Shown here: positions 20,553 through 45,241 of the stretch, one piece after another | Layout: each line of letters opens with the position of its first letter | How positions within the stretch are numbered: position 1 is the stretch's first letter | DNA from: Nitrospirota bacterium | GTDB taxonomy: Bacteria; Nitrospirota; UBA9217 | Reading direction: 5' to 3' | Assembly: GCA_963751455.1 (NCBI GenBank) | Contig: CAVVUN010000008.1 | Coordinates: 256,001-320,000 of the forward strand | Length of the DNA: 64,000 nucleotides | Made by a program: the position numbers and the translations under genes | The notes under the pieces: model-generated | Seen by the model: the letters and a program-made list of their open reading frames with translations, nothing else | The model's database searches: none | Told to the model about the DNA's origin: nothing

Positions 20553-20960
20553 ATGAGGAGCAAGCGGTTTGGTTATGTTTTTGCGATAGTGTTTTTGCTT
20601 CTGATTTTAGGAGGGTGCGGCGGCGGATCGAGCGCCGTTCCGGGCGACCAGACATCCGCAGGCAGCGGCTACGGTGTTTTACCTGGCGGGAGCAGCGACT
20701 CGGAGGCAACCGGGATGGCAGCGCTTACCTGGGAAGCACCTACCACAAATGTCGATGGAACGGCCCTGACAAAGGTCGTCGGATACAGGATATATTACGG
20801 GTCGGCGCCCGGAGCATATAAAGGATACCTGGATGCCGGCAGCAGGCTTGACTTCTCGATCAGTGTCGCCCCCGGGACATACTATTTCGCTGTCAGTGCA
20901 TATAACAGCTCCGGCGGTGAGAGTATTCCTTCAAACGAAGTCAGCAAGACAGTATTATAA
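20553..20960 (+). CDS. lipoprotein with fibronectin type III-like domain
   Basis: Lipobox LGGC (Cys22), G/S linker, LTWEAP...GYRIYYG...GTYYFAVSAYN...ESIPSNEVSK. Confidence 0.88.
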   Translation: MRSKRFGYVFAIVFLLLILGGCGGGSSAVPGDQTSAGSGYGVLPGGSSDSEATGMAALTWEAPTTNVDGTALTKVVGYRIYYGSAPGAYKGYLDAGSRLDFSISVAPGTYYFAVSAYNSSGGESIPSNEVSKTVL

Positions 20961-21001
20961 TGATTGACAGGCTTTGACCCGCTGTTCGATAGCGCGGTCA
21001 T

Positions 21002-21036
21002 GGACGAATGAAATCTTCTCATTCGTCCTTTTTTTT
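21002..21036 (+). terminator. intrinsic terminator
   Basis: GGACGAATGA-loop-TCATTCGTCC followed by T8. Confidence 0.8.
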
Positions 21037-21074
21037 GCCTTTTTTCTCCATCAGATTAGCATAAACGTATTACC

Positions 21075-21252
21075 CCTAAAAACTGCAGTTGGACGCAGAT
21101 GAACGCAGATAACCGCAGATCAAACAAAAGAATTTTTAGAGAAAAAAATTCACCCGCTGGGTGGACTGCTTTTACGATACAGGAACGTTTTTTATCCGAC
21201 TTTATCTGCGTTTATCCGATTTTTCTGCGTCCCAAATGCTTTTTTTTACAGG
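21075..21252. mobile_element. CCT...AGG MITE (CGCAGAT subtype)
   Basis: Near-identical to 61594-61793 and to the reverse complement of 56933-57075; no clear target duplication. Confidence 0.85.
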
Positions 21253-21278
21253 TCTCTGGCAGCCACTCCGCTTCGACA

Positions 21279-22661
21279 TTATTGATGACTTGCGATGTGG
21301 TACAATCCATGCTTCTTCATGATGTCATAAAAAGTCGGGCGGCTGATGCCCAGGTCCTCTGCGGCTTGAGCGATATTTCCCTTATGCCGGTCCATCGCCC
21401 GCATGATCATATCCCGCTCTACCCGGTCTCTGGCATCCCGGAGTGTCCTGCTGTCGGGGACAAGCGAAACAGGTATTGACGGTTTCGATGAGAAACCAAG
21501 GTCATGCGGCTCGATGAGGGCGCTTTCCGAAAGAATGACTGCGCGTTGTATCTTGTTTTCAAGTTCACGCACGTTGCCCGGCCAGCCGTAGGACTCCATC
21601 ATTTCGAGCGCCGCTGCACTGAATCCTTTTATCCGTTTCTTGAATTCTTCGCCGAACTGCCGCAGGAATACGGTGGCCAGGAGTGCAATGTCTCCTTTCC
21701 TGTCCCGCAGAGGCGGAAGAGGGACTGTCACGACCCCGATACGGTAGTATAAATCTTCACGGAACCGGCCGCACTTGATCTCTTCAGTGATATTTTTGTT
21801 CGATGCCGCGATAATCCTGGCATCGACATTGATGTCACCCCTGCCGCCGAGCCTCTGGATCGTCTTCTCCTGAAGAAAACGGAGGAGCTTTACCTGGAGG
21901 GCGTGCGGCAGCTCACCGATCTCATCCAGAAATAGTGTGCCGCTATGCGCGAATTCGAACTTGCCCTGCACCTTGGCATGCGCCCCTGTGAACGCGCCTT
22001 TTTCGTGACCGAAAAGCTCCGACTCAAGCAGATTTTCCGGGATCGCACCGCAGTTGATCGGGATAAATTCTTTTTCCCGACGCTGACTGAGAGTGTGAAT
22101 GGCGCGGGCGACAAGCTCTTTTCCCGTTCCGCTTTCTCCCTGGATCAGCACTGCAGCTTCTGAAGCCGCCACCTTTCTTACCGTAGCAAATACTTCCAGC
22201 ATGGCCGGGCATTGTCCGATGATGCCGGTCAGTGCGCCGCTTTTTTTATTCAGCGTCGTTCGTAAACGGCGGTTTTCCTCCTCCAGCAGGTAAAGATGGA
22301 ACGCGCGCTTCACAATGACTTTTAACTCGGAAAGATCGATGGGTTTTTGGAGAAAATCATATGCCCCGTTCTGCACTGCACGCACGGCATTCGCCTTTTC
22401 CCCGCTGCCCGTCACAATGATAATCTTGGCAAACTGCTGAGTTGAAAGCATTTCTTGAAGACAGCGGAACCCCTCATCAGTTCCCTCTGCATGGGGAGGC
22501 AGACCCAGATCGAGCACTACGACTTTGGGCCGATGCTTCAGAAAAAGGGCGAGAGCTTCTTTCCCGTCACCGGAGGACAGCACGGTGTATTCTGTGCTGA
22601 AACCCCACTTCAACTGTTTCCGGATGTCTTCAGAATCGTCAACAATAAGCAGTTTTTCCAT
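21279..22661 (-). CDS. prsR: PEP-CTERM-box response regulator PrsR
   Basis: MEKLLIVDD...QLKW...LDLGLPP, GAFTGA, HTH; adjacent to prsK and an exosortase. Confidence 0.88.
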
Positions 22662-22821
22662 TGCATGGTACTCCTTTTTCTTTAGTGCCGAAAAACTTAG
22701 TAGTGCGCGTGAAAGCGGGCTGCACGCAGGGACGGCACGGACCATCTGACCAAGAGGCAAAGCTTCCCTATACGATACATAACCAAGTGTCAGTTTTTGC
22801 TTTTCGTCGACGCTTGGGCCG

Positions 22822-24934
22822 CTAAATTTTGATTTGCTGCGGCCGAGGCAACGATGCAGAATAAGCGCTGTCCAGCGCATACCGCAGTGTGCGGTCAGCG
22901 GCCGGAAGGCGGACGGTAAAACTGGAGCCCTTCCCACTCTCGCTCGACACTTCGATTGTGCCGCCAAGCGACTCGACGATCTTCTTGCATTGGTAGAGGC
23001 CGATACCCAGCCCTGTCTTTTTGGTGGTTCGGAACGGCTTGAAAAGCTGGTGCTGCATGAAGGCTCTGGTCATTCCGGACCCGCTGTCGGTAATCGTCAG
23101 GCACACACTGCCGTTTTGCCAGCCGGTTTCTATCGTGACCTGTGCCCGTTCTCCGCCCGCCTCAAGCCCGTTTTGAACGAGATTGATGATCACCTTCTTT
23201 AGTTCACCTGTGTCGATAAGGGCAGGCGCCGGTTCTCCGCGGCAGACGATATCCGCATCAGGCCTTGCCTTCCTCATCTCCTCTACGACCTCCGAGGACA
23301 AATCACGGATGTCGTGTCGTTCCATGCGCGACGCTCCGCCTTGGTCAACCACCTTCAGCTTTTGCGTCAGTTGTTTCATATTCTTCGAGCGCATTGCGGA
23401 TCGCTGTTATCATATCGCGCTGAAATTGCATATTTCCTATGTGTTCTTCGGCATTGTGCGTCATCAGCGCGAGGGTATAGGCAAGATTCTTCAAATCGTG
23501 GACAACAAAGGACGATAGACGGGCAGTGGCGGCAAGTTCCCGGGTTTCTATCAATTCCTCGGAAAGACGAAGATTATTGAGCAGCAGAGCGGCTTGCCGG
23601 GCCACGATCTTCATCAGGTCATAGTCCTCGTAAGTGAACGGCTCCTCCCCTATCGGCTCTCCGAAGACAACCACGCCTTCGGTCTTCCGGTTGCAAACCA
23701 GCGGAACGACCAGCCGCGCACGCGAAGTGCTGATAAACGAGATCTCTTCGTCATCGGGTTCGTATTCACCGTCAAACGGGTTCCATACGCGGTTCCGGTC
23801 GCAGAAATACGACTGCAGAGCCTCTGAGGGAATAAACCCGGTATCGGGACCGGCAACCTGATGCTGTCCCGCCGGCAGATACCTGCCGCTCGTTCGATTG
23901 AACAGGTACAGGAATGCGCTGCGAAGACCGAAGATTTCGCGGTAGGCTGCCGGGATTGCTTTTTCCATGTCGCAGACCGTCATGCAGGAGGCCAGCCGGC
24001 TGCTCAAATCGAGCCAGGTGTGGCGATAGTCGTGCTTGTGCTCGAAAAAATGCTTGCTCAGGAAGACCATCAGCGACCGCCGGAGCGTCTCCGAGAGGAT
24101 TGCGATTAAAAGGGCGATGCCGCCCGCAAAAGACAGGAAAATGGTCAGGTACCTGCCGAAGGACACATCGAAATACCGGATGCCTTCTCCGATAGTGCCC
24201 AATAGAACGAAGTAGATTCCGGCACCGAGCAGTGTAAGCGAACGGTACATCATATACCGGGAGACGGTAACGTTGATGCCGCTGCCGCGAACCAGTTTTG
24301 AGAACAAGATGAGGCACGATGCAATGATGAAAAAACCGGCCCTGACCGGCTGCAGTTGGGCAATTGTTGCGGGGTACAGCATCGCCTGGCTGAAAGTGAA
24401 GATCAGCACCGTCAGGATGCTGCCCGCTCCTATTACTTCGTACTTGATCTTGTCTCGGTCGGCCGCAGCGGTGGAAACGAATGTCGCCTCGAGGTTCATC
24501 AGGGCAACGATGAAGAAGACCTGAGCGGCCAGAGAGTACAGGGACCCGCCCCCGCCGGGGAAAAGCGCCACTGCGGCGCCGGGGTGGTTCAAAAGATCGA
24601 TCAGGGGAAAAACGATAGCCACGGCAGGCAGGAGAACAACGGCCGAGAGAAGGACGACTCCGCGCCGGGAAAAAACCGAGACCGATTCGCTTCGCGCAAA
24701 GGTTAAGCTGTACCACAGCAGGCACGCGGGCAGAAAAGCTGCAAAAACAATCCCAAGCGCTTTGTACTGGGAATAAGAGCCTCCGCCGTATTGTTCCGCA
24801 GCCTCGATTGCGGCGAGGCAAAGAGCGCTCAGCGCAAGGGCAATATCGGATGAGCTTTTCCGCTTTCCTATGCTGAGCGCGAAGACACAAAGAAGTGAGA
24901 AAATCGCGAGCGTTGAGAGGATTATTGGGTTCAT
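22822..24934 (-). pseudogene. prsK: PEP-CTERM system histidine kinase PrsK, split by a frameshift near 23390
   Basis: Multi-TM N-terminus, KHFFEHKHDYR, GAF, SSFVVHDLKN in one frame; HATPase (LFKPFRTTK, GLGIGL) in the other. Confidence 0.85.
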
Positions 24935-24937
24935 GGT

Positions 24938-26251
24938 CTAGGCCTTTATCAGGGTGCAGTGCCCGTTTTTATGTGAGCCGTTGGTCGCATTCCGTGTATC
25001 GACGACGAGAGGCGCGTGATTAAGGATAAAATCATAGTCATAGCAGGAGTGGTCAGTAGCTACGACAACGCAATCGTAGGTCTTCAGCGCCTTTTCCGTC
25101 AACGCCACGGAACTTTTTTTGAAGTCGTACATCCGCATCTTCCTGGTTTTCGGGATATACGGATCGTTAAAATCCACCTGTGCGCCTTTTTCGGCGAGGA
25201 GGTCCATGATCTTGAGAGAAGGCGATTCCCGCGTGTCGTCAATGTCCTTCTTATAGGCCAGGCCGAGAATAAGAATTTTGGAAGCCCGTATCGGCTTGTT
25301 CTTCGTATTAAGAGCGCCGATTATTTTGTCGACGACATAATATGGCATATGGGTGTTGATCTCGCCGGCGAGTTCGATGAATTTCGTGTGAAAATCGTAT
25401 TCGCGGGCCTTCCAGGTCAGGTAGAAAGGATCGATGGGAATGCAATGACCTCCCAGGCCAGGCCCGGGATAAAAGGCCTGAAAGCCGAACGGCTTTGTCT
25501 TGGCAGCCTCTATTACTTCATAAATATCGATGCCCATCCTGTCGAACAACATCTTCAGTTCGTTGACCATTGCTATGTTTACCGCCCGGTAAATATTCTC
25601 GAGCAGCTTGGCCGCCTCGGCCACCTTCGTCGAGGAAACCGGAACGGTCTTGTTGACAACCGAGCTATAGAGCGCATCCGCCAGCTTAAGGCAATTCTTT
25701 GTATATCCTCCCACGATCTTCGGTATTGTGCTCGTGGAATAGTGTTTGTTGTTCGGGTCCTCCCGCTCCGGTGAAAAAGCAAGATAGAAATCCTGACCGG
25801 CCTTGAGACCGTTCTTTTCGAGAATCGCTTTCATGTCCCCGTCGGTGGTACCCGGGTAAGTCGTCGACTCCAGCACCACGAGATGGCCTTTTTTGAGATA
25901 CTTTGCAACCGTCTCGGTCGTATTGAGCACATACGAGAGGTCGGGCTCGCGGTGTTCATTGAGCGGGGTAGGAACGCAGATGATGATGCAGTCCGTCTCT
26001 CGCAGCTGTGAAAAATTGGTGGTTGCTTTGAAGCTGGTATTGTTTTTGAGGAGATTCACTTCCTCAGGAAGTATATGCTTGATATAGGTTTTGCCCTCCT
26101 GCAGGCATTTTATCTTTTCGGGATCTATGTCGAAGCCGATTGCCTCAAATCCCGCTTTTACGAACTGGATGATGAGGGGAAGTCCTACATAACCGAGTCC
26201 GATGATTCCTACCGTTGCACTTCGTTTTTGAATTTTGTCCAGAAGCGTCAT
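24938..26251 (-). CDS. UDP-N-acetylhexosamine 6-dehydrogenase (WbpA/TviB-like)
   Basis: GLGYVG, CVPTP, ESTTYPGTT, SPEREDP, GGHCIPID. Confidence 0.93.
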   Translation of the reverse strand: MTLLDKIQKRSATVGIIGLGYVGLPLIIQFVKAGFEAIGFDIDPEKIKCLQEGKTYIKHILPEEVNLLKNNTSFKATTNFSQLRETDCIIICVPTPLNEHREPDLSYVLNTTETVAKYLKKGHLVVLESTTYPGTTDGDMKAILEKNGLKAGQDFYLAFSPEREDPNNKHYSTSTIPKIVGGYTKNCLKLADALYSSVVNKTVPVSSTKVAEAAKLLENIYRAVNIAMVNELKMLFDRMGIDIYEVIEAAKTKPFGFQAFYPGPGLGGHCIPIDPFYLTWKAREYDFHTKFIELAGEINTHMPYYVVDKIIGALNTKNKPIRASKILILGLAYKKDIDDTRESPSLKIMDLLAEKGAQVDFNDPYIPKTRKMRMYDFKKSSVALTEKALKTYDCVVVATDHSCYDYDFILNHAPLVVDTRNATNGSHKNGHCTLIKA

Positions 26252-26290
26252 AGTTGTCTCCTTTGCGTCAATGTGTTAAATATGTTAAGC

Positions 26291-26348
26291 AGTTGAGTTG
26301 TTGAGTTATCCGGTTTCTCAACTACTCATCCGCTGAACGACTCAACGG
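26291..26348. repeat. 8-bp-period inverted arms
   Basis: AGTTGAGT TGTTGAGT TATCCGGT / CTCAACTA CTCATCCG CTGAACGA CTCAACGG. Confidence 0.6.
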
Positions 26349-26358
26349 ATTCCGGAAC

Positions 26359-26787
26359 CTATTTACTGACCTCGTTCGAAAAAAAACTCTCTACTCCCGA
26401 CGCATCGTATGCCTTTACTGCGAAATAATGGGTTCCCGTATCGAGACCATGAACCGTATATGAGCATTCAGTTCGGCCGGGGCCTCCTTCCTGAGCATCG
26501 CTTTTCCTGCACGATAAATCGGGACTATCAAGCGGAATCTTTATGACCCGGTCATGCTTTTGGGGCGAGTTCCCATAATAAATCTTGTATCCTGCCAGGC
26601 CGGCTTTTCCGGTTCTATTCCTGGCGGGCTCGTTCCAGGTCAATACAACACTGCCTCGGCCTGCAGGGGGCGCATTACTTCTGCACCCGATCACTGCCGC
26701 GAGCAGGAGTACCATGCTGAAGCAGGTAATCCTGAAGAAAAATGAGATAAGCGTAATCTTTGTTTTATTTTCGTTCAAGAAATGCAT
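26359..26787 (-). CDS. FN3-like lipoprotein, related to 20553-20960
   Basis: VIGC lipobox-like motif, LTWNEP...GYKIYYG...HYFAVKAYD...ESFFSNEVSK; start uncertain. Confidence 0.82.
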   Translation of the reverse strand: MHFLNENKTKITLISFFFRITCFSMVLLLAAVIGCRSNAPPAGRGSVVLTWNEPARNRTGKAGLAGYKIYYGNSPQKHDRVIKIPLDSPDLSCRKSDAQEGGPGRTECSYTVHGLDTGTHYFAVKAYDASGVESFFSNEVSK

Positions 26788-26837
26788 GAGATATTCCTTT
26801 TTAGTGACAAGTCCCTCTTCTGCTTGTCCGGTTCAGG

Positions 26838-27764
26838 TCATTTCCGCCTGAACCAGCCGTCAAGACGCTGGTCCTGACCGGATCTTTTTTCAAATTTTCT
26901 GAGGAGCACAATAAGGCCGCCCACAATAAACAGGGAGAGCATGAAAAAAAGAATTCCCATTCGGCTATGCAATGTGCTTTCCGTGAGCATCCTGCTGTCG
27001 ACATAGACGCCCAGTATGGAAAGGACGAATATCCTGAGGCCGTTTTTCACTATCGTGATCGGAACTGCCGCAATCACGAGAACTGCCCTTGACCATCCGG
27101 AACGCAGAAAAAAGCTGCCTGCAAACAGGGCCGTAATTACCAGGGAGAGGCCTGCGCGGACTCCGCTGCATTCCTTAGCAACTTCTATATCGAGCGTCGG
27201 CAGGTGAAAGACAAAGCCTTCCCTTCCGAATGGGGTGCCGGCTGCAATAAAGAACACGTGAACGGCTGCGGAGGACCACTGCCGGAGAAAAAGGATACAG
27301 TGCTCGAGCAGCGAATCCGGCAGGGGGACTGCCAGGAACAGGAACAACACGGGAAACGCTGCTTCCCGGAGCGAATCCACGCCGTACAGGACCGTAAATC
27401 CCGAAATCCAGAGCACAACAAGTGAAAGAGCCATGAGAGATTGATAATTGCTCCGGTTGAACAGGATGTGCGCCTGATCGGCGGCGATGAAGAACACCGC
27501 AGCGGCGCCTGCAAGTAAGATCGCGGCCTGCCGGGAAGAAGGGGGGCAAGAAAAAATCTTTTTTCTGTTCATGAAAAGAAGATACGCCGTAATGATCGGG
27601 ACAAGCGGAACATACGAGAAGTACGGGCTCTTCCAGCACGTCTGCATCAACTCCCGGAGCTGCGGAAAGAAAAAAACTGCGAAGGCCGCATTCCAGAGGA
27701 GAAAAAGCAGGTTCCGGTGGAGCACTCCCTTGAGAAGCGGATAGCTCGTTTGCTGTTTGTTCAT
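26838..27764 (-). CDS. exosortase (EpsH/Xrt family)
   Basis: About 8 TM helices; catalytic Cys (VAKECSG), Arg (NGLRI) and His (LHSRMG). Confidence 0.9.
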   Translation of the reverse strand: MNKQQTSYPLLKGVLHRNLLFLLWNAAFAVFFFPQLRELMQTCWKSPYFSYVPLVPIITAYLLFMNRKKIFSCPPSSRQAAILLAGAAAVFFIAADQAHILFNRSNYQSLMALSLVVLWISGFTVLYGVDSLREAAFPVLFLFLAVPLPDSLLEHCILFLRQWSSAAVHVFFIAAGTPFGREGFVFHLPTLDIEVAKECSGVRAGLSLVITALFAGSFFLRSGWSRAVLVIAAVPITIVKNGLRIFVLSILGVYVDSRMLTESTLHSRMGILFFMLSLFIVGGLIVLLRKFEKRSGQDQRLDGWFRRK

Positions 27765-27793
27765 GACTGCTGAACCCGGCTGTTGAAGAGTAT

Positions 27794-28214
27794 CCTGAAA
27801 AAAACATTTAGGACACGGATAAAATCCGATTAACGCGGATTTATAAAGACATTAAACCTTTATAATCCTAAAAACGGCATTTGGACACGGATGAACACGG
27901 AAATAACGGATAAAAACAGTGCGCTAGAACAAAATAACATCTCGCCCTTTTGGAGAATTATGAAAGAGTTGTATATCTTTGTAAATACGTGTTAATCAGA
28001 TTTTATCCGTGTCCAAAAGCTCTTTTCAGGATAATTCACCCAAAGGGCGAAATGTTACTTTATCTATCGCGCTGTTTTTAATCCGTAGGCGCCTGCACCC
28101 ACCGATTACGAGCCTGCGGCCAGCGATTATGCGTGCGAAGCGCAAATGCAGGCTGTGAGCATGCGCGAGTGCAGGGCGTTCCGTGTTCATCCGTGTCCAG
28201 TTTCTCTTTTTAGG
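27794..28214. mobile_element. older CCT-family MITE in reverse orientation with two nested insertions
   Basis: CCTGAAAAAAACATTTAGGACACGGAT...ATCCGTGTCCAGTTTCTCTTTTTAGG; interrupted at 27867-28030 and ~28087-28178. Confidence 0.8.
27867..28030. mobile_element. 164-bp CCT-family MITE
   Basis: Identical to 856-1019; flanked by ATAAT duplication. Confidence 0.92.
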
Positions 28215-29938
28215 TCATGAATAGTGCCGCTCTCAGGAGAGGAAGCCATTAACGTGCTGCGTTCTCTCGTTACGAAAGCATTGACGGTGACGCCATTTTG
28301 AGCTGAGGAAGGAACAGCCGAAGCTACAGGTCTACCGATGTCTCCGCTGTTGATGTTTTTTTCGTGGTCGTCCTTCAGTGTCTTTTTGTCGGTCTTGCCG
28401 TTCGCCGATTTCGGGAGTCGGTCGACAAATATAACGTGTTTCGGAACCATGAACGATTGAAGGCGGTCTGCACAGTGCTTCAATACTTCCCGGATTTGAG
28501 GCCGGACCTCGCCGGGGCATACCACGCATGCCACAACCGCCTGACCCAGTATTTCATCCGGCACACCGAAGACAGCCGCTTCCAGTATCCCCTCCATGGC
28601 ACACAGCACGTTTTCAACTTCCCGGGGGCTTACCCGCTCACCCCTGGTCTTTATCATATCGTCCTTCCTGCCGACAAAGTAAAGAAATCCTGCCTCGTCT
28701 TTCCTGAACAGGTCACCCGTGTAGAGCAGGCGCTCGCCGGGCAGGCGGCCGGGACGAAAGGTCTTTGCTGTCAGCTCCGGCGCGTTCCAGTAGCCGCGCA
28801 TGACATGCGAGCCCCTGATGACCAGCTCGCCGACCTCGCCTGGCAACGCCTCGTCCCCGGACTCGTTTACGATAAAGACCTCGGTATTGGGTATAGCCTT
28901 TCCAACCGACGCCGGCCTCCGGGAAAGCTCTTCGGGCGGAAGATAGGAGACACGCTTGCACTCTGTCAGCCCGTACATAGAAAAAAGCCGTGCTTTCGGC
29001 AGGAGCACAGCAAGCTTCCGTATATATTCTACAGGCAGGGCCGCCGCCGTATTGGTCACGTAGCGAAGCGAGCTGAGATCATACCGATCAAGGTTTTTCA
29101 TTTTCAGAAGCAGAAACGCCGCGATGGTCGGAACCAGCGGGAACCCGGTGGCGCGCTCCCGTTCAATGCGTTCGAGAATTTTAACGGGATAGAGGAAGGC
29201 CTTTTCGAGAACAACCGTTCCCCCGAACATCACGGCCATGATTACCTGGTACAGGCCGTAATCGAATGAAAGCGGAAGCACACTTACGATAATGTCGTCG
29301 GGCGTATTCCCGATATACTGAATAATGCTTCGCGCTGCGGAGATAACGTTGTGGTGCGTGGACATGACTCCTTTGGGCTCCCCGGTTGAACCAGAGGTGT
29401 AGATGAGTGCCGCAAGGTCCTGATCAATGCACGCTGCCGTATGCACTGCCGGCGGGTCGGCAGTCAGTTTATCCTCCCGCAGTACTTCGGCCCAGGATAA
29501 CCGGGGACCCGGAAGCGTCTGCGGCACGTACTCGCTATCGCCCACCCATAGTGTAGTGCATTCCCGGCCGAGTCCGGCAAGGGCCTCCTTCACCACATCG
29601 GCCTTACCGGTATCGGTTATAAGAACGGTGGCTCCAGAGTCCCGGACGATATAGCCCAGCTTGCCGGCTTTCATGGTACTGTCAAGGATCACAAAGACCG
29701 CGCCTGCCTTCAGAACGCCGTACATTGAGATCACTGCTTCGATCGAATTATCCAGGAAAATGATTACGCGGTCACCCCGTTTCAATCCGAGAGACAACAA
29801 AGCATCGGAGAGGCGGGCTGAAGAGTATTCCAGCGCCCGGTAGCTCAGGCGTCCTTCGCCGCAAATGACGGCGTTCTTGTCCGGGAACTCAGCGGCCGTA
29901 CGGGACAAATATTCATGCACTAAGACGGGGCTGAACAT
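28187..29938 (-). CDS. class I adenylate-forming enzyme (acyl-CoA/ACP ligase type)
   Basis: YTSGSTGEPKG, LSFDYG, MYGLTE, TGD, GRKDDMIK, PKSANGK. Confidence 0.92.
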   Translation of the reverse strand: MFSPVLVHEYLSRTAAEFPDKNAVICGEGRLSYRALEYSSARLSDALLSLGLKRGDRVIIFLDNSIEAVISMYGVLKAGAVFVILDSTMKAGKLGYIVRDSGATVLITDTGKADVVKEALAGLGRECTTLWVGDSEYVPQTLPGPRLSWAEVLREDKLTADPPAVHTAACIDQDLAALIYTSGSTGEPKGVMSTHHNVISAARSIIQYIGNTPDDIIVSVLPLSFDYGLYQVIMAVMFGGTVVLEKAFLYPVKILERIERERATGFPLVPTIAAFLLLKMKNLDRYDLSSLRYVTNTAAALPVEYIRKLAVLLPKARLFSMYGLTECKRVSYLPPEELSRRPASVGKAIPNTEVFIVNESGDEALPGEVGELVIRGSHVMRGYWNAPELTAKTFRPGRLPGERLLYTGDLFRKDEAGFLYFVGRKDDMIKTRGERVSPREVENVLCAMEGILEAAVFGVPDEILGQAVVACVVCPGEVRPQIREVLKHCADRLQSFMVPKHVIFVDRLPKSANGKTDKKTLKDDHEKNINSGDIGRPVASAVPSSAQNGVTVNAFVTRERSTLMASSPESGTIHDLKRETGHG

Positions 29939-29989
29939 GCGGTCACCTCCTGAGGACGGCCAAATTAAAAACGGCAACGTGCAAAAAAT

Positions 29990-30116
29990 GTAGATATCCG
30001 GAAAAAAGGATCCATCCGCAGATTTCGCAGACGGACGCAGATTTTAAAATCATTTCTGGTTTACATAATCTGTGGCATCTGCGTAATCTGCGGATAAATA
30101 ATGACTGAGTAGTTAC
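29990..30116. mobile_element. degenerate MITE ending CTGAGTAGTTAC with CGCAGAT arms
   Basis: Right end matches 56869-56880; internal ATCCGCAGATTTCGCAGA...TCTGCGTAATCTGCGGAT. Confidence 0.65.
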
Positions 30117-30149
30117 ATTGCTTTAACGATAAAATGAAATTCTTTTTAT

Positions 30150-30313
30150 CCTAAAAACGGCATTTGAACACGGATGAACATGGAAACAGCGGATCAAAAC
30201 AATGTGATAGAGCAAAAAGCCATCTCGCCTTTTGGGTGAATCCATTACTGTTCGTAACTTCCTATAAATCCGTGTTGATCAGATTTTATCCGTGTCCAAC
30301 TGCTTTTTTCAGG
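30150..30313. mobile_element. 164-bp CCT-family MITE (diverged copy)
   Basis: Same ends and length as 856-1019; TTTAT duplication (30145-30149, 30314-30318). Confidence 0.9.
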
Positions 30314-30314
30314 T

Positions 30315-32309: not shown

Positions 32310-32321
32310 AGATTATGGTTT

Positions 32322-32392: not shown

Positions 32393-32406
32393 AATTCCAC
32401 TCAGTA

Positions 32407-32679: not shown

Positions 32680-32721
32680 GGTTTCCTCCCCTTTATTGGA
32701 TTTCGGTTGTTCCATACTCAC

Positions 32722-33744: not shown

Positions 33745-33745
33745 T

Positions 33746-34731
33746 TTATTTGGACTCCTTTTGCTGGTCATCGAAGAGAAAAAAACATTTACAACTCCTC
33801 AGGCCGCTGAGCACGGATACACTCCTTTTTGTTTTCTGTTCACTGATGAGACTGAGCAAATACCGTCCATAGCCGTTTTTTCTCAACGGCTCCGCAAGGC
33901 TGCGACACACGCTCCGCATCGATATAGCCCATGCGATAGGCAACCTCTTCTATACAGGCAACCTTGAGTCCCCGCCGCTTTTCAATAGATTCTATAAAAG
34001 TGCTTGCCTCGAGCAGCGACTCATGGGTGCCCGTATCCAGCCACGCGAATCCGCGGCCCAGGAGCTCGACACTCAGCTGTCCCCGCATTAAATATTCAGA
34101 GATTACATCGGCAATCTCAAGTTCACCGCGGGCTGACGGCTTGAGACGCGATGCGATTGCAACAGCGTCATTGTCGAAAAAATACAAGCCAGGAACAGCG
34201 AAATTCGACTTTGGTTTTTCCGGTTTTTCCTCTATGCTCAGGACTTTTCCGTAAGCGTTGAACTCCACGATCCCGTATCGCTCCGGATCTCTTACCTCGC
34301 AGCCGAAGATAAGACCACCCCTTCTCAACCCGTACTGCTCTCTGCAGGATTTCCGGCAGGCCGTGCCCGTAAAAAATGTTATCGCCGAGGACCAGGCAGA
34401 CATTATCCGCGCCGATGAAGTCTCTGCCGATGATAAAAGCCTGTGCGAGACCTTCGGGCCGCGGCTGCACTGCGTAGGAAAATCGAAGACCGAGCGAACA
34501 ACCGTCGCCGAACAGACGCTCGAAATTGGGGAGGTCCCCGGGAGTGGAAATGATAAGTATTTCGCGAATGCCCGCCAGCATGAGCACCGAGAGCGGGTAA
34601 TAGATCATCGGCTTGTCGTACACGCTCAGCAGTTGTTTATTTACCGCCAGTGTGATCGGATACAGTCTTGTACCTGCTCCGCCCGCAAGGATGATCCCCT
34701 TCCATCGGCAATGGTCTTGTTCGCTTTTCAC
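33746..34731 (-). pseudogene. rfbA: glucose-1-phosphate thymidylyltransferase with two frameshifts
   Basis: [14 protein letters not shown]...GDNIFYG, then EEKP...WLDTGT in a second frame, then KNGYGRYL in a third. Confidence 0.9.
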
Positions 34732-34749
34732 GATTATAGGCTCATCATG

Positions 34750-35976: not shown

Positions 35977-35978
35977 GC

Positions 35979-37289: not shown

Positions 37290-37294
37290 CCGCG

Positions 37295-38707
37295 TTAAGC
37301 CCGGGAATGTGCTCTGCGCGCCACTACGAGATAGCGTGCTGCGACAAGACCCCTGAGCATTCCCGGTGTTATGTGCGCAATCCGTTGTAAGCGCCCTTCG
37401 AAACCATAGAAGGAATGGACGGCTTCCAGGTTGCATTGTTTCAGCCATTTTGTAACTTTTCTTTTCGTGGTGAAATGAAGCCCCGTTTTATCAAAATCGT
37501 TCATATTTCCTGATAAAGTTCTCTCTAAGGCTAACTCTCTGCGAATTTTTATATTATTAAAATTAGGCACGCTGATGATTATAATCCCTTCTTCGGTCAG
37601 CACGTCTGCATGTCTGGATAGTATCCTCACGGGATCGTGAAGATGCTGCAGTACTTCGGAGAAAATCATGCAATCAAATCGCTTGCCGGATATGGTTTCG
37701 TATGCCTTTTCGAAGTCAGGACAGATGACCTCAGCCCCTTTGGCCTCAGCGCAGGCGCCGATGATCGCGTCCAGCGGAATAACAACGACCTTATGCCCCT
37801 TTTGAACCAAGGCCTCCTCTGTTGCTCCCCATCCGCAGCCGATGGAAAGAACATTTTTCAGATCACCGGGAATCAATGCGATGATGTCGTTTCTGCATTT
37901 TTCGTAGTAGCTTTTGCTCCAGCGCGCCTGTCTGAGCCTGGTCTCTATCGGAAAAAGCGGCCCACGGGAATCCCCGTTGCCCGCGTTCTTGAGCAGGGCT
38001 TCTATCTGCCGGCGAAATTCACCATCTGCCAGCCCCAGCTTTCTGATGTAAACGCCGGGCAGATGGTGGATCTCAAAATCCTTCAGATGGGAGATGCATA
38101 TCGCTTTCGATAGGCCGCACTGCGTATAGGGATCTGTCGCCGCCGTCACCAGGAGGTCATATCGCTCATCATGGGGGCCTACCAGATATCCTCCGGAATC
38201 GATCGCCATTTTCAATTGCTTCCTGGTCAGGATATAACAGGCGGAATGATCATTGGTGAAACGGGCAAAGGTATAATCGCCGATCGACTTGACAGAGCCC
38301 GGAACCCAATGGAAATGAGAATGCACGGTTGAATAATATTTCTTCCCGAGCGAGTCCTTTTCGTACCGCAGAAACCCGGCAAGCTCATGTTCAGGAAGAA
38401 TGCGGGTCACGTCCAGGAAAGCCCGAATATTATTTTGCGTTACCAGCGTGTCATCCTCTGAATAGATAAAGAGGTCATAATTATTCGCTCTTTCGGCAAA
38501 CAATTTTTTATGCCCAAAAGGGAGCGACCAGGGGTTTCTGGAAGGAAGTCCTACCTTGACTTCGATTCCCGGACCAAGCTTTTTTGGAATATTCGACAGC
38601 ACAACTATGTCTATTCGATACGGCATCGACTGGTATTCCTTGATAACGGCACTAAGGAATCCCATGTTCTTGCTTCCGTAATTTGCGATAGCGACTAGAA
38701 TTTTCAT
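37295..38707 (-). CDS. GT-like N-terminal domain fused to class I SAM methyltransferase
   Basis: LFIYSEDD in the N-terminal half; VLSIGCGWG, EVLQHLHDP, SVPN in the C-terminal half. Confidence 0.75.
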   Translation of the reverse strand: MKILVAIANYGSKNMGFLSAVIKEYQSMPYRIDIVVLSNIPKKLGPGIEVKVGLPSRNPWSLPFGHKKLFAERANNYDLFIYSEDDTLVTQNNIRAFLDVTRILPEHELAGFLRYEKDSLGKKYYSTVHSHFHWVPGSVKSIGDYTFARFTNDHSACYILTRKQLKMAIDSGGYLVGPHDERYDLLVTAATDPYTQCGLSKAICISHLKDFEIHHLPGVYIRKLGLADGEFRRQIEALLKNAGNGDSRGPLFPIETRLRQARWSKSYYEKCRNDIIALIPGDLKNVLSIGCGWGATEEALVQKGHKVVVIPLDAIIGACAEAKGAEVICPDFEKAYETISGKRFDCMIFSEVLQHLHDPVRILSRHADVLTEEGIIIISVPNFNNIKIRRELALERTLSGNMNDFDKTGLHFTTKRKVTKWLKQCNLEAVHSFYGFEGRLQRIAHITPGMLRGLVAARYLVVARRAHSRA

Positions 38708-38888
38708 CTTTAAGACAGCTCGCTCAGTCGAATTTTGTATTTATAAAATTACTACAGAATAAACAATTTCACATCATACTCATGGTTTGTTATGAGGCTA
38801 GATAAACGGAACAGCCCGTGTCTCCTTCAGGCTCTCTCGTCAGAAAAAAAGGGATGCATTGTGGAAAGTATATTAATAAAAACAACAG

Positions 38889-40208
38889 TCATCTCGTCGT
38901 ACCCAATTGCTCCGGGGAAAGTCGTTCAATGGCTGCTGCCTCGTGAACGTTCCCAACCGGAACTGTTGCAGACCATACGGAGGCTATGGCCGCAAGGCTC
39001 AGGTAAAGGAAGAGAAACGACTGGTCGAAGTAGGAAACACCTATAAAGGTGACGACGTGTGCGAAAAGCGACGCCCCAAGCGCCCATATCATGAAGCGAG
39101 ACTGCGATGACAACTCAGGCATCTGCCGCAGTGTCTGACCTACGAAGGAAAACCCCTTGGCCAAGACGGCAATGAACAGCAGCATTAAAGGCAGCCCCCC
39201 TGTTACTCCCATGTGAAGGTAATAATTTGTGATATCACTGTGATCCGCACTCCAGCCGACGCCGGTAACCATCCAATCGCGGGTGTAATCCGTCCCAGCC
39301 AGCCACCAATCAGAGAGCTGCTCGAAAGCAGACTGAATAAGCCTTGATCGGTGATATCCTGTGCTCCCGCCGGTTAAATCAATGCGCGCTATGAGATAAT
39401 AGGCCGGCGCCTTCATAATCAATTCCAGGCCGATGTAGCCGAGAACTGCAAGCCATCGGACAAGCCGCATCCGATGGCGGTAGCGCCACATGAATAATGC
39501 TCCGATAGCTGCCATGAAGCTCAAAATCGGCCCGCTTGAGGAGGCGGCAAATATCATTATCAAACAGGCTCCGACTCCTATGAGTGCCGCTTTTCGGGAC
39601 CGATTCCACAGGACGATCACAAGCGGCAGACAGACTGCTCCGACCGTTCCTGCCAGAATGGAATGGGCAAAAGGACCTTGGGCGCGGAGCCGGCCGACGC
39701 GGATAGTCGGACTTTCCGAAACACCGCCCAGCAGAGAGAAAAGATTATGCGCTGTAAGTTTTTCATAGAGCATCTCAATTGCCAGCGGTACAAGCAGGAT
39801 CGCTGTAACGCGACACAGGGCAACCACATCATCGAATGATTGACAAAAAATTCGAAGAAGGAAGTAGATTCCACATGCATTGTAAACAAGACCAAGCCGG
39901 CTTATGAATGCCTTTGAGGGCTCATCGTGGAAGAAGCTGCTCAACAGCGCCCAGGCAGCCCATATCACCATCAGCCGGTCCATTGCATTTAATCCGCCGG
40001 CCAACCGCTCACCTCTTGCGATCACGCGCACAACACCAGCGGCCACCAACATTCGGATCACGGTGAATGTAAACGGTCCTATCTCGATTCCCTGTCCCAG
40101 AGTCATGTAACAGGCTCCGAGCAATAGAGGCACGGGCGCCCAGCGACGTGGCAGCGCGAGGAGCGCTACGGTACTTAGCATCACAAATATTACAGCAATG
40201 AAGGTCAT
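38889..40208 (-). CDS. Wzy/O-antigen ligase-like membrane protein
   Basis: Multi-TM, RAQGPFAHSI, STGYHR, DITNYYL. Confidence 0.8.
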   Translation of the reverse strand: MTFIAVIFVMLSTVALLALPRRWAPVPLLLGACYMTLGQGIEIGPFTFTVIRMLVAAGVVRVIARGERLAGGLNAMDRLMVIWAAWALLSSFFHDEPSKAFISRLGLVYNACGIYFLLRIFCQSFDDVVALCRVTAILLVPLAIEMLYEKLTAHNLFSLLGGVSESPTIRVGRLRAQGPFAHSILAGTVGAVCLPLVIVLWNRSRKAALIGVGACLIMIFAASSSGPILSFMAAIGALFMWRYRHRMRLVRWLAVLGYIGLELIMKAPAYYLIARIDLTGGSTGYHRSRLIQSAFEQLSDWWLAGTDYTRDWMVTGVGWSADHSDITNYYLHMGVTGGLPLMLLFIAVLAKGFSFVGQTLRQMPELSSQSRFMIWALGASLFAHVVTFIGVSYFDQSFLFLYLSLAAIASVWSATVPVGNVHEAAAIERLSPEQLGTTR

Positions 40209-40470
40209 CCGGTCTCTTGGATTGGTCTAGCCGTGATCTGCTTTACATTCCACTGTCGATCTCTGTTATCCTGAAACTTAGAAGCGGCAGTGCTTTCAGA
40301 AGAAGCCTAAAGGAGGAGCCGTTTTGGCTTAATGCTTGCGCGACGATTCATTGGGTCTTTGATAAACCAATTATTACGTTTGTGGTCTGAATCACAGATA
40401 ATTACTTTGAACAATACGAATATACAACTAGTGAAAAAAGTATTATTAATTTTCAATTTCACGATCGTAT

Positions 40471-40513
40471 CGTGAGCTAAATCACATATCGTAAGCATTA
40501 ACTATGATAAGCT
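40471..40513 (+). promoter_or_regulatory. CRP box with extended -10
   Basis: CGTGA-GCTAAA-TCACA, then TGaTAAGCT (hexamer 21 nt after the box); second box TGTGG-N6-TCACA at 40381-40396. Confidence 0.7.
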
Positions 40514-40567
40514 TTAACTAGTGATTAGGTTTCTAGTCGCTATAGAATACAATCGAGGGGGTCAATT

Positions 40568-41944
40568 GTGAAAAAAACAATGTGGAGTCTGGTCAGTTTA
40601 GTTGTGTTCATTCTGTGTCCGACTTTTTTATGGGCAGCTACTATTTACGTCTCGCCCACAGGCGCCGGGAGCAAAACCGGTAGTGATTGGAACAATGCTT
40701 ACCAGGGTCTTCCTTCATCAATGGTAAGGGGAAATACGTATGTGATAACGGGAGGAAGTTATTCTGCAAAGTCATTTAGTGACGCTCAAAGTGGTTCTAC
40801 GGTAATTACCATTAGAAAAGCATCTTCTCTTCCGCAGTATAGAGACGATCTTATAGCCGGGTGGAATTCAAACTACGAGAGAGATCAAGCTGTTTTTACC
40901 GGCCAGAGTACTTTTAATACCGGATATTACATTATTGACGGCATAACTCCCTCAACGGGCCACTGGCAAACTTCCGGTTATGGAATAAAATTTCGTGCGA
41001 CGAGTTCCGGAACCAAGTACCTGGTCACGACGGGGTCCAGCAGCGTAAATTATGTCACGCTTAAACATATAGAATATCAGCATCTTGGGTCTAGCTCGGA
41101 CACGCAGCAATTTGCGATACATCCCGGCCTTGACGGTACCTTTGATTCATGGACAGTTGCGAATAGTTATTTTCATGAGTTACAGGTGTTCATGAAACTG
41201 TCTGGCTATGCTCCCAAGGGGTGGATCATCGAACACAACTATTTTGGGATTAACTGGAGTTCCTCGACCAATCACGGAGAACAACTTTCCTTTTCCCATC
41301 TGGGGGGTTCTACACCGCATCACGTCAGATATAATTGGTTTGAACCTTTTAGAGGCACCGGATCATTGATTTATCTCTGGTATCAGAACAAGACTGCAAA
41401 CGACATTTCAATCTATGGAAACGTCTGGCATAATCCCCCATCCGGCGGTAATGGAGTGATTGGGACTGGAAGCACCGGTAATTCGCCTTTGAACTATGAC
41501 AACTGGAAAATCTACAACAACACTTTTATCAACGGCACTGCTCAAATAGCGATAGGTTTTGCCGACTCTCCGCCTACTGGCTGGGAAATAAGAAACAATG
41601 TGTTTTATAACTGTCAAGCTAGATACATGTTTGGTGCTCCGAACGGAGTGATCAGCAACAACTACCGCAACGGAGGCTCATGGGGATTGGGAACCTGCAC
41701 GAATTGTGTGACTTCTGCCGAACCGGTTTCAACGCTTTTCCCGAATTACAGCAGCGGAGATTACCGTATAGGGTCAAATTCCCAGGCAATAGATGCGGGG
41801 TTCAGTTTAAGTTCCCCCTACAATCTAGATCCCGTCGGTACTTCACGCCCGCAATCCACGGCGTTTGACATGGGAGCCTATGAGTTCTCAACGGGCAGTG
41901 CCTTAGCGATGCCAAATCCTCCTACTAACTTACGCATTAACTGA
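40568..41944 (+). CDS. secreted right-handed beta-helix-like protein, paralog 1
   Basis: Signal peptide (LWA/A), [14 protein letters not shown] / IRNNVF repeats, AIDAG...DMGAYE. Confidence 0.82.
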
Positions 41945-42598
41945 GATATTGTTCCGGTCAATCTCCGCTCTTACGGGAGATTGACCGGACTTCAATATGA
42001 TGCCACGCTGCGTGAGCAGGCTGATAACACGTTCCACGCAATCTTCAACAGGAGTGAAGGCGGTATCAACCACAAGGTCCGGCTGCGTAGGCTCCTCGTA
42101 GGGTGATGACACCCCCGTAAATTCCTTGATCTCTCCTGCCCTGGCCTTTTTGTAATGGCCCTTTACGTCCCTTTGCTCACAGATCTCGATTGAACATTTG
42201 CAATATATTTCGACGAAGTCCCCGGAGCCCAGCAGCTCCCGGAGCCGTTGTCGGTCAGCCCGAAAAGGCGATATAAAGGCCGTAATTGCAATAACTCCCG
42301 CATCTACGAACAGCTTGGCCATTTCCCCTATGCGCCTGATGTTCTCGGTTCGGTCTTCCTTGGAAAAGCCGAGGTCCGAGCAGAGCCCATGGCGGACGTT
42401 GTCGCCGTCAAGCACGTACGTGCGGCAGCCCATGTTGTGCAGCTTTTCCTCCAGCGCATGCGCTACCGTGGATTTTCCGGCGCCTGAAAGGCCCGTAAAC
42501 CACAGACAGATGCTCCGATGTTCATTTATTTTTTCCCGTCGTATACGGGTAACCGTTGCGTGATGCCACAGTATATTATTAATGTTTCCGGTAATCAT
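41930..42598 (-). CDS. cysC: adenylyl-sulfate kinase
   Basis: [38 protein letters not shown]. Confidence 0.95.
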
Positions 42599-42728
42599 AG
42601 TCAATTGCTCCAAAGTTGAGACCACTGATGCCAGCCGTTCGCTGCCTGGTCGCCTGTTAGCCATCTTTCACCTGCCTGGTGTTCGGACACATCGGATTTC
42701 CCGGTTTTTGTGTATAGCCGCAAAGACA

Positions 42729-43652
42729 TTACTGAAAAACCGGATGAATATGCGGGTCATATTCAAATCGTTTCATACTGTTTAACGTCATACTGGTAAT
42801 AAATTTTTCCTCATAGGGATGAATAGACTCTTTCCAATGTTTTGCTGCTTTTTTATTGAAGCCTTCAGAAGTTTTTCCTGTTACACTGGATGCCTGCCCC
42901 GCTTTTGGGTAGAGCATTTCGGGAATAAAATCAATCTCCGTAAACTCGCACAGTCTCCTGATGGTTTTTTCAGGCTCTGCAACAAGATCCTCGAACTTAA
43001 AAAGAGCATAATTTTTTATTCCTTTATATTTCGAATGCAATTTTGATGTCCACATATATTCAAGGATTACGTAATTTATCATCATCTGCCTTATTGCAAA
43101 TCTCAAATGGGGATGTTTTTGCATTCTTATCTTCGTGCCACCTGGATCATTTGTTTTGGATATTGCAATTGCTCTTGGATCGCGTGTTATGTGTATTATC
43201 TTGCATTCGGGATACCACTCAAGTAATTTTGGAACATAATTTACGGAAACGGGAAACTTCATACAACATCGGCCGCACCCTTTAAATTCCGTAATTTCCT
43301 CTATTATTATTTTAAATATGCTTTCTAATGATTTATTTGACTTCATAAGCCTGTTACGAAGTACAGTTTTAAACTCATTATTATTGACTTTTTCTATATC
43401 ATAGAACCAGAATGGATTAGCAAGTCCAGGTTCCAACCGACGCGAGAACATAGCCTCTATCATTTTATCAATATTATTTTCATTCGATAAATCCCCCACT
43501 GTATGCCGTAAAAAAAACCTGAAATCTTTTCTCCATTGATTGAGATAAAACATCTCACCCATTCTATAGATTTCAGGATGCTGTGCAAAAATGTTGAGCC
43601 ACAGAGTACTGCCGGACCTGCGAAGACCAACGATAAAAATGGGATTTTTCAA
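42729..43652 (-). CDS. sulfotransferase family protein
   Basis: 5'-PSB GLRRSGST and 3'-PB RDPRAIAIS, FEDLV; AT-rich. Confidence 0.9.
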   Translation of the reverse strand: MKNPIFIVGLRRSGSTLWLNIFAQHPEIYRMGEMFYLNQWRKDFRFFLRHTVGDLSNENNIDKMIEAMFSRRLEPGLANPFWFYDIEKVNNNEFKTVLRNRLMKSNKSLESIFKIIIEEITEFKGCGRCCMKFPVSVNYVPKLLEWYPECKIIHITRDPRAIAISKTNDPGGTKIRMQKHPHLRFAIRQMMINYVILEYMWTSKLHSKYKGIKNYALFKFEDLVAEPEKTIRRLCEFTEIDFIPEMLYPKAGQASSVTGKTSEGFNKKAAKHWKESIHPYEEKFITSMTLNSMKRFEYDPHIHPVFQ

Positions 43653-43760
43653 TTTAGCACCTCATTATTTATTATGAAATTGCCGATACCGGCTTATCTT
43701 TTCGAATCAGCTTTGCCATGAAACTGCGCCAATAGTATTAATATAATTAAAACAAGGAGT

Positions 43761-43804
43761 TGTGAGATGAATCACATACGATGAGCCCTCTCGTTTGTTA
43801 AAGT
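43761..43804 (+). promoter_or_regulatory. CRP box with extended -10
   Basis: TGTGA-GATGAA-TCACA, then TGtTAAAGT (hexamer 22 nt after the box). Confidence 0.78.
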
Positions 43805-43867
43805 AATCAACTCACAGCTTGATCAATGCAGCATGTTTTAATTTTGATGTAACCTGGACGGTATACG

Positions 43868-45241
43868 ATGAAAAAAACGATTATGATTTACAGTTTCTTT
43901 ATGTTCATTCTATTTCCGGCTTTTTCATGGGCCGCTACTCATTATGTCACTCCAACAGGAGCCGGGAGCCTGGATGGAAATGATTGGACTAATGCCTACA
44001 ACGGATTACCGGCAAATTTAACGAGGGGAGACACCTATGTTGTGGCAGGCGGAAATTATTCTTCTAAGAGCTTCAACGATGCTGAAAGCAGTTCAACCGT
44101 AATCACCATTAGAAAAGCATCTTCTCTTCCACTGTATAGAGACAATCTCATAGCCGGATGGAATCCGGGCTACGAAACAGAGCAAGCTGTTTTTTCAGGT
44201 CAGTCCGTCTTTATGACGGGATATTACACTATCGATGGCGTAAATCCTTCGACGGGCCATTTGCAAACTTCGGGTTATGGAATAAAATTTTGTGCGACAA
44301 GTGCCGCAACCCGCTACGTGGTTTCGACCGGGCCTAACAGCGTAAACTATGTGACGCTCAAACATATGGAATTCCACCATCTTGGGTCAGGCTCTGATAC
44401 TGAGCAGTTTGGGATACATACCGACCTGTCGGCCACTTACGATTCGTGGATAATTTCTCATAACTATTTTCACGATTTACAAGTGTTCATGAAAATAGCG
44501 GGCTATGCTCCTAAGGGTTGGATGATAGAACACAACTATTTTGCGAGTAACTGGAGTTCTTCGGCTCATCATGGAGAACAAATTTCCTTTGCCGGGCTGG
44601 GCGCTTCTACGCCGCATCAAATCAGATATAATTGGTTTGAACCTTATCATGGAACCGGGTCATTGATTTATCTCTGGTATATGGACAAGACTGCAAACGG
44701 CATTTCGATCTATGGAAACGTCTGGCATAATCCGCCATCCGAGGGCAATGGAGTGATCGGAACCGGAGATACCGGCGAATCCAGCTTGTCTTATAACAAC
44801 TGGAAAATATACAACAACACTTTTATCGGCGGTACTGCTCAAATAGCTATAGGTTTTGCCGGCTCTCCGCCTACTGGCTGGGAAATAAGAAATAATGTGT
44901 TTTATAATTGTACAACTCAATACATGTTCGGTGCTCCGGGCGGAGTGATCAGCAATAACTACCAGAACGGAGGCTCTTGGGGATGGGGAACCTGCACGGA
45001 TTGTGTAACTTCAACTGAAGACGTTTCAACCCTTTTCCGGAATTATAGCAGCGGGGATTATCACCTAGGGCCAAGCTCTCAGGCGGTAAATTCCGGGTTC
45101 ACGTTAAGTTCACCCTACAATGTAGATGCAGACGGTGTTTCTCGTCCGCAGGGGCCCGCGTGGGACATCGGAGCGCACGAAGTCGCAGCAGGCAGTACAA
45201 CTACAATACCAATGCCCCCAACGTTGCTGCGTGTTAATTGA
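43868..45241 (+). CDS. secreted beta-helix-like protein, paralog 2
   Basis: Colinear and highly similar to 40568-41944 over its full length. Confidence 0.82.
   Translation: MKKTIMIYSFFMFILFPAFSWAATHYVTPTGAGSLDGNDWTNAYNGLPANLTRGDTYVVAGGNYSSKSFNDAESSSTVITIRKASSLPLYRDNLIAGWNPGYETEQAVFSGQSVFMTGYYTIDGVNPSTGHLQTSGYGIKFCATSAATRYVVSTGPNSVNYVTLKHMEFHHLGSGSDTEQFGIHTDLSATYDSWIISHNYFHDLQVFMKIAGYAPKGWMIEHNYFASNWSSSAHHGEQISFAGLGASTPHQIRYNWFEPYHGTGSLIYLWYMDKTANGISIYGNVWHNPPSEGNGVIGTGDTGESSLSYNNWKIYNNTFIGGTAQIAIGFAGSPPTGWEIRNNVFYNCTTQYMFGAPGGVISNNYQNGGSWGWGTCTDCVTSTEDVSTLFRNYSSGDYHLGPSSQAVNSGFTLSSPYNVDADGVSRPQGPAWDIGAHEVAAGSTTTIPMPPTLLRVN

Follow-up and report, generated by a model that had tools for sequence, protein, structure and literature searches.

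A 64,000-nucleotide window of a Nitrospirota bacterium genome (contig CAVVUN010000008.1, positions 256,001 to 320,000; positions below are window coordinates unless another contig or locus is named) encodes two short predicted lipoproteins, P0001 and P0002, each ending in a fibronectin type III (FN3) domain, and two secreted paralogues, P0003 and P0004, each ending in a ten-residue tail that resembles the first strand of such a domain (Table 1). Comparison of these genes with their counterparts in other genomes makes strand-A complementation in trans probable: the tail would serve as a sortase-free anchoring tag that uses the donor-strand principle of pili but builds no pilus.

Incomplete FN3 lipoproteins and tailed secreted proteins

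FN3 domains normally open with a strand A of the form P-x-P-x-N-L-x-V, followed by the Trp strand. An earlier note on this DNA had stated that the FN3 domains of both lipoproteins begin at the Trp strand and stop at or just after SNEVSK, and the coordinates and sequences agree with it. The P0001 domain opens at the LTW strand and its chain ends in SNEVSKTVL; in P0002 exactly 10 residues, the number originally counted, separate Cys35 from SVVLTW, and the C-terminus is SNEVSK. Signal peptides and lipoboxes were judged by eye, without a predictor. The Pfam fn3 profile matched P0002 over positions 13–80 of 84 only (E = 5.7e-5; 23.7 bits, below the cut-off of 25), and the Pfam scan gave no match for P0001. 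P0002 also carries, between strands C' and E (26500–26570, minus strand), an insertion of ~20 residues that contains two cysteines; it is absent from the other 34 domains aligned and possibly forms a disulfide loop.

P0003 and P0004 are 71% identical and both match the choice-of-anchor Q model NF041518 above its cut-off. After a short linker, each terminates at the stop codon in P-x-x-P-T-x-L-R-[IV]-N, and profile searches found no FN3 match in either. The earlier description of these ends as strand A-like tails without a transmembrane (TM) or PEP-CTERM anchor was thus confirmed. The DNA pattern of the tail occurred once in the window versus 0 times in 100 shuffles; in the whole genome the strict pattern was found in 11/16275 open reading frames (ORFs), among which P0003 and P0004 were, by eye, the only credible secreted proteins. 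P0003 was modelled as a parallel beta-helix with modest confidence (predicted local distance difference test, pLDDT, 59), its last 55 residues falling below pLDDT 50 and the tail being unstructured there. A Foldseek search with this model gave no match at E <= 0.001, the best rows, with E no better than 1.6e-3, being PL6 lyases.

Table 1. Features of the window relevant to the predicted acceptor/tail system
Feature	Position	Strand	Description
P0001 (acceptor 1)	20553..20960	+	Predicted lipoprotein, 135 amino acids, lipobox-like Cys22, Gly/Ser linker, C-terminal FN3 domain
P0001 FN3 strands B–G	about 20709–20957	+	From alignment and AlphaFold2 model
P0002 (acceptor 2)	26359..26787	-	Predicted lipoprotein, 142 amino acids, Cys35, 10-residue linker, FN3 strands B–G
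P0002 FN3 strands B–G	26362–26658	-	Two-cysteine insertion; gene comes after exosortase gene
P0003 (cargo 1)	40568..41944	+	Signal peptide, predicted parallel beta-helix, choice-of-anchor Q (residues 400–440), linker, strand A-like tail
P0003 tail	41912..41941	+	Ten residues, stop codon directly after
P0004 (cargo 2)	43868..45241	+	Paralogue of P0003, same architecture
P0004 tail	45209..45238	+	PMPPTLLRVN, stop codon directly after
CRP-type box, perfect	20453..20468		Between divergent crp-family gene and P0001
CRP-type boxes (two), one mismatch	40381–40396, 40471–40486		Upstream of P0003
CRP-type box, perfect	43761..43776		Upstream of P0004; shared with divergent sulfotransferase gene
CRP/FNR-family regulator	19611..20414	-	Divergent from P0001; profile match
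Exosortase, P0002, nucleotide-sugar dehydrogenase-like gene (presumed name), split prsK, prsR	21279..27764	-	PEP-CTERM/exopolysaccharide locus

A putative acceptor family of FN3 domains without strand A

The lipoprotein domains, hereafter acceptors, retain the FN3 signature, with W and Y alignment columns that vary little or not at all (Trp in strand B, Tyr in strands C and F), and no strand A of their own was found before the Trp strand. Among 150 distinct domains scoring at least 60 bits in the loci examined, 146 have no strand-A motif upstream; the other four comprise two ordinary FN3 domains and two apparent false matches of the regular expression. By a crude heuristic, in ~54 cases the acceptor domain directly follows a hydrophobic signal, and the protein extends further or passes beyond the end of the locus. 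The mature chain of such proteins would open at strand B, leaving no residues for a strand A in cis.

The P0001 domain matched in 40/61 genomes, and acceptors were encountered as C-terminal domains of short lipoproteins and on Ig/BACON stalks, as well as in a protein with a single TM segment and directly after a signal peptide. The genome under study has a third acceptor, at the end of a 478-amino-acid lipoprotein with Ig-like repeats (contig C1:194459-195895; L001:11460-12920); the gene that follows it (1052 amino acids) ends in a choice-of-anchor-Q-like motif and bears no tail. In the ordinary FN3 domains of this genome, the Trp strand is still preceded by P-x-x-P-x-x-L. A further protein, P0025 (757 amino acids), contains six tandem acceptor-type domains joined by Pro/Ala/Ser linkers and is a possible multi-socket scaffold.

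Tandem arrays relate the two halves. In P0005 and P0006 the first FN3 repeat lacks strand A while later repeats have it, with D-x-T-x-P-x-x-P segments in front that resemble the linkers leading into many tails (D-T-T-P-P-like). Judged by sequence, the tail is strand A of the acceptor FN3 subfamily. A search of 50% clusters returned 89,377 proteins at E <= 0.001 and 2,282 at 1e-30, mainly giant multi-repeat proteins, and served as an internal control only.

An AlphaFold2 model of P0001 residues 23–135 (127 sequences) has six strands at high confidence in a domain of ~85 residues. Superposed on FN3 domains, it reached at best Z 11.9 and a root-mean-square deviation of 2.3 over 93 aligned residues. 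A search for solved relatives gave ordinary FN3 domains and no close member of the acceptor family. The model indicates a site that takes a strand.

The tail on unrelated cargo

The earlier note had proposed a search for C-terminal tails. A scan of GTDB for the tail plus a stop codon, in which in-frame ends were judged by eye and some were partial, gave 48 loci, 35 of them (in 33 genomes) in-frame protein ends and 13 chance matches. Conserved terminal tails were found in records from Nitrospira, Acidobacteriota, Rokubacteria, Gammaproteobacteria, Deltaproteobacteria, Gemmatimonadales and Patescibacteria, on unrelated cargo that includes beta-helix, PL14-like, LamG, kelch-like and caspase/Sel1 proteins; the tail proteins of same-phylum relatives closely resemble those of the Nitrospira records (L218, L085). 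The module appears generic, its tail occurring on many proteins that are unrelated and often carbohydrate-active-like. Several cargo genes may accompany one acceptor: at L100, 15 tailed genes come after a single acceptor lipoprotein gene, and eight tailed genes are found at L079, in a genome where a TM-anchored acceptor comes directly after another tailed gene (L114). This last acceptor (L114:1396-1773, Patescibacteria) has an N-terminal hydrophobic anchor in place of a lipobox.

The position of the motif is mostly terminal. In 81 occurrences, the distance from motif to stop was 1–3 residues in 68, 8 residues in one and 9–63 residues in none, and 12 were internal, 11 of which run on into a Trp strand. 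This bimodal distribution argues against random truncation; the set is partly biased by pattern selection, yet 52/78 distinct tails differ from the peptide used in the GTDB scan. The last tail position is Val/Ile in terminal tails and Ala in internal strands, a difference that we do not use as evidence because the search patterns demanded Val/Ile.

None of the 78 tails has a hydrophobic 19-mer above 1.6 that could be a TM segment, the tails lack a PEP motif, and no PEP-CTERM model matched P0003, P0004 or 15 other proteins of the system. PEP-CTERM/exosortase substrate status was considered for the tailed cargo and rejected, the tails being without a TM segment. Neither the tail nor the split domain is covered by any of the Pfam, NCBIfam and PHROG models scanned.

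Co-occurrence and adjacency of tails and acceptors

A strand-A-less FN3 acceptor was present in 25/33 tail genomes, in 23 as the best match and in two more as a divergent one. We also used a phylum sample of 201 same-phylum genomes picked regardless of tail or acceptor. Here the tail pattern occurred in 14 genomes, 10 of them with a real tail, and an acceptor-family match in 71; all 10/10 real-tail genomes (five genera, six genomes from one) were among these 71, and 3/4 genomes with only spurious tail matches had no acceptor-family match. The hypergeometric probability, own genome excluded, is 5.5e-5, which is overstated because six of the nine genomes share one genus.

In Gammaproteobacteria an acceptor match was found in 22/300 genomes, one of them being ordinary FN3. 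Beyond the seed genome, real tails were detected in 4/20 acceptor-positive genomes and 0/10 negative controls, with a loose pattern that allowed only one residue before the stop. In Patescibacteria the strict pattern occurred in 3/251 genomes and only the seed genome had a real tail, too rare for a paired test.

Tails and acceptors are also neighbours. Nineteen acceptor/tail pairs were found within single loci, and after two doubtful ones had been dropped, 15/17 were at most 600 nucleotides apart on the same strand; the gene most often next to a tail gene is an acceptor. Tails imply acceptors well; the reverse direction is not supported.

Shared CRP-type boxes

The same note had linked one lipoprotein with both cargo genes through shared CRP boxes, and this held: the boxes of P0001 and P0004 are perfect and those of P0003 have one mismatch. 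Boxes with two mismatches were not enriched in the window (14 versus a shuffle mean of 21.8), for which reason only perfect and one-mismatch boxes were counted. The 5.7 Mb genome contains 12 perfect boxes, all intergenic, three of which precede P0001, P0004 and the C1 acceptor (151 nucleotides upstream in the latter case), and 122 one-mismatch sites. Of 27 acceptor or cargo genes inspected in our own and related genomes, 13 have a perfect or one-mismatch box close to the first start codon, among them three genes of the window; one box overlaps a start codon, and in the relatives such boxes lie upstream of acceptors and of one cargo gene. Acceptors and cargo are likely co-regulated through these boxes, and the likely reader is the CRP/FNR-family regulator encoded beside P0001. 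A divergent crp-family gene beside an acceptor lipoprotein is conserved in two genomes of the same family (L055 and L056).

Observations that weigh against complementation in trans

Several observations weigh against this mechanism. In the window, acceptors and cargo lie 14–23 kb apart, and no CRP box was found upstream of P0002. AlphaFold2 places the Gly/Ser linker of P0001 (model residues 12–17) as a seventh strand, and the model aligns over residues 2–113 to a whole FN3, the linker being modellable in the strand-A site. According to the earlier note, the idea would fall if the FN3 domains completed their fold with their own N-terminal residues; the model touches this point in part, since it contains the linker strand but at a pLDDT of only about 57. 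As a control from tandem arrays, 6/13 subfamily members at 80 bits or more possess strand A; complete FN3 members score as high as acceptors, which makes uninspected profile matches an imperfect proxy for the latter. Among 11 non-self homologues of P0003 (9 genomes), five have a terminal tail, two stop at choice-of-anchor Q without one, one has a degenerate end, one is broken and two were not examined. In Gammaproteobacteria the strict tail pattern was at control level (10 genomes versus 12 control matches). The co-occurrence that the note had proposed to look for was found from tail to acceptor; in the other direction, 16/20 acceptor-positive gammaproteobacterial genomes showed no tail by the loose pattern, which covered terminal tails with one residue before the stop, plus flanks of up to 10 kb.

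The linker strand, the acceptor genomes without tails and the tail-less cargo homologues are what one would expect if the acceptor were self-sufficient, its six strands being stable alone or completed by its own linker, with the tail a remnant of a lost FN3 domain and the loci shared only as envelope genes. We regard this as unlikely. A remnant would not readily explain why stops cluster so closely behind the motif or why fifteen tandem genes at L100 retain the same tail. The linker, for its part, is variable, is down to 10 residues in P0002 and is absent from the many acceptors that start at the signal-peptide cut.

The tail might instead be an export or processing signal for another machine, such as a secretion channel, a protease or the neighbouring exosortase, the FN3 acceptors being incidental. 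The occurrence of many tails per genome, at the C-terminus of proteins with a signal peptide, does resemble sorting signals; in the window the tail follows choice-of-anchor Q in a PEP-CTERM locus; and 8/33 tail genomes, which also count against complementation, have no clear acceptor and mostly ordinary FN3 (G207, G209, G210, G212, G213, G219, G223, G239). A signal of this kind is nevertheless very unlikely, given the missing TM helix and PEP motif and the finding that the acceptor is the most frequent adjacent gene. The presence of the tail in Patescibacteria as well as in diderm lineages also makes one shared outer-membrane machine unlikely.

Proteins with both halves

Six proteins combine an N-terminal acceptor with a C-terminal tail (L025, L102, L138, L156, L175 and L202); no protein of the window does so. 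Long spacers separate the halves in L025, L138, L156 and L202, an arrangement compatible with a tail that folds back in cis to cap the cargo's own domain or to complete its own FN3 as a circular permutation. As an explanation of the tail we find this extremely improbable: P0003 and P0004 have no FN3 match, the same tail sits on unrelated folds, and in L175 and L102 the 3–4 residues from strand G to the tail look too short to span the domain. The smallest of these proteins, L175 (L175:1145-1489), comprises in 114 residues a signal peptide, an acceptor and a shortened tail that follows strand G after three residues. In the standard FN3 topology the end of strand G and the start of strand A are at opposite poles. 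With so short a spacer the protein seems unable to close in cis; the simplest reading would be a head-to-tail chain.

The nearest language-model look-alikes of L175 are viral clusters (score 0.95), and three viral contigs (L267, L268 and L270) encode acceptors that end in a tail-like sequence or have a tailed gene next to them; an annotated phage collection gave one weak match, to a minor tail protein. These proteins raise the tentative idea, about which we remain more doubtful than confident, of a chaperone-free FN3 kit, in which anchored acceptors, extenders with both halves and interchangeable tagged cargo might assemble into head-to-tail, non-covalent fibres tipped with enzymes.

Genomic setting

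P0002 is part of a PEP-CTERM/exopolysaccharide locus, which also includes a presumed nucleotide-sugar dehydrogenase-like gene. The prsK gene of this locus is split over two frames (22822–24934, minus strand), positions 7–522 of 679 of the TIGR02916 profile being in the first ORF, by either a frameshift or an assembly error. A gene that we take to be glucose-1-phosphate thymidylyltransferase-like (33840–34731, minus strand) is also split, over two overlapping frames. Between P0003 and P0004 lie adenylyl-sulfate kinase and sulfotransferase genes (41930–43652, minus strand), which suggest a sulfated exopolysaccharide. Elsewhere in the window there are, presumably, a transposase-like ORF (9146–10915) and a split integrase-core transposase (58776–59782). 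An ORF with IPT/TIG and choice-of-anchor Z repeats (NF058597; 63606–63986, minus strand, and beyond the edge) probably represents the terminal part of a larger surface protein.

Discussion

Donor-strand complementation calls for a beta-sandwich that lacks a strand and for another chain with the orphan strand that matches it, and both are found here. The comparative predictions tested for complementation in trans were borne out in the direction from tail to acceptor: unrelated cargo carry conserved terminal tails, tail and acceptor genes co-occur and are often neighbours, one acceptor may accompany many tailed genes, and CRP boxes are shared. In FN3 structures strand A packs over the Trp of strand B. 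By this mechanism, the cargo would be exported by Sec, and its last ten residues would bind the groove of the acceptor as strand A and cover the conserved Trp of strand B, the split in the FN3 falling in the A–B loop. The completed fold would then hold the exported cargo on the membrane without a sortase or a TM anchor. Given the established topology, the lipid tether would enter at one FN3 pole and the cargo leave at the other, so that the latter would face outward from the membrane. In this window the system would probably position two beta-helices, polysaccharide-binding or lyase-like, at the envelope, beside the exopolysaccharide machinery, with the complexes either periplasmic or on the surface.

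Ordinary FN3 domains (PF00041; chitinase A1 FN3, 1k85) have the same strands B–G and the same strand-A motif; what differs is that these are here divided between two genes. Chaperone-usher pili perform donor-strand complementation using an usher, a chaperone and an N-terminal donor strand. The donor strand here is C-terminal, and no usher or chaperone was recognised by eye among the window ORFs (no genome-wide search was made), nor was an activating protease found. Nearest in concept are the ABM1 and ABM2 motifs of gingipains, which pair as an FN3-like domain in which ABM1 includes the Trp strand, whereas the donor here would be strand A alone. These short motifs hold the enzyme non-covalently on the surface, and ABM2 'may be' the partner of ABM1 (PMC10319874, PMC5266723); they arise by proteolysis of one Porphyromonas polyprotein, in contrast to the separate genes found here.

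Type V pili (FimA/Mfa1), whose strand exchange is triggered by a protease, share with the proposed system the terminal beta-strand of one chain that completes the beta-sandwich of another. They combine a C-terminal donor strand and lipoprotein anchoring with a two-domain transthyretin-like pilin fold (PMC13655056), unlike the single FN3-type domain here, which is not transthyretin-like. Their tip pilins lack donor strands, whereas here the lipoprotein would accept and the distal cargo donate, a different anchor polarity. A further difference from both kinds of pilus is that the tail sits here on many unrelated proteins. In PilC/PilY1, about 10 C-terminal residues add a beta-strand that links a large secreted protein with an envelope structure; that tail augments a type IV minor pilin complex, belongs to one adhesin family and is non-FN3 (PMC13711793). 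PEP-CTERM signals, defined by a PEP motif, a TM helix and a basic cluster (PMC1569441), resemble the tail, as do MYXO-CTERM and GlyGly-CTERM, in being short C-terminal tags on many unrelated signal-peptide proteins with a dedicated partner and in their exopolysaccharide loci. The tail differs from them in having neither TM helix nor PEP motif and in implying no cleavage, and its partner would be a binding domain instead of an enzyme.

No description of a split FN3/tail pairing was found in the family libraries searched or in the literature searched, which lay mostly outside subscription papers and supplements, in keeping with the earlier remark that no description of such a system was known. 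The system is apparently a real, widespread and undescribed form of the donor-strand mechanism. If the proposed pairing is true, it would be a sorting signal independent of a sortase and of any TM helix or lipid on the cargo, and it would explain thousands of hypothetical lipoproteins with a 'truncated FN3', together with orphan tails, in nitrifiers, other environmental bacteria and Patescibacteria. The pairing would also offer a ten-residue tag with an 85-residue catcher. If the FN3 kit were true as well, it would represent a new class of protein-sorting signal common to Nitrospirota, Gammaproteobacteria, Patescibacteria and phages, and a natural peptide-tag/catcher pair. For the organisms themselves, the pairing would predict which proteins stay on the cell, and it would bear on the placement of exopolysaccharide-acting enzymes in flocs and biofilms.

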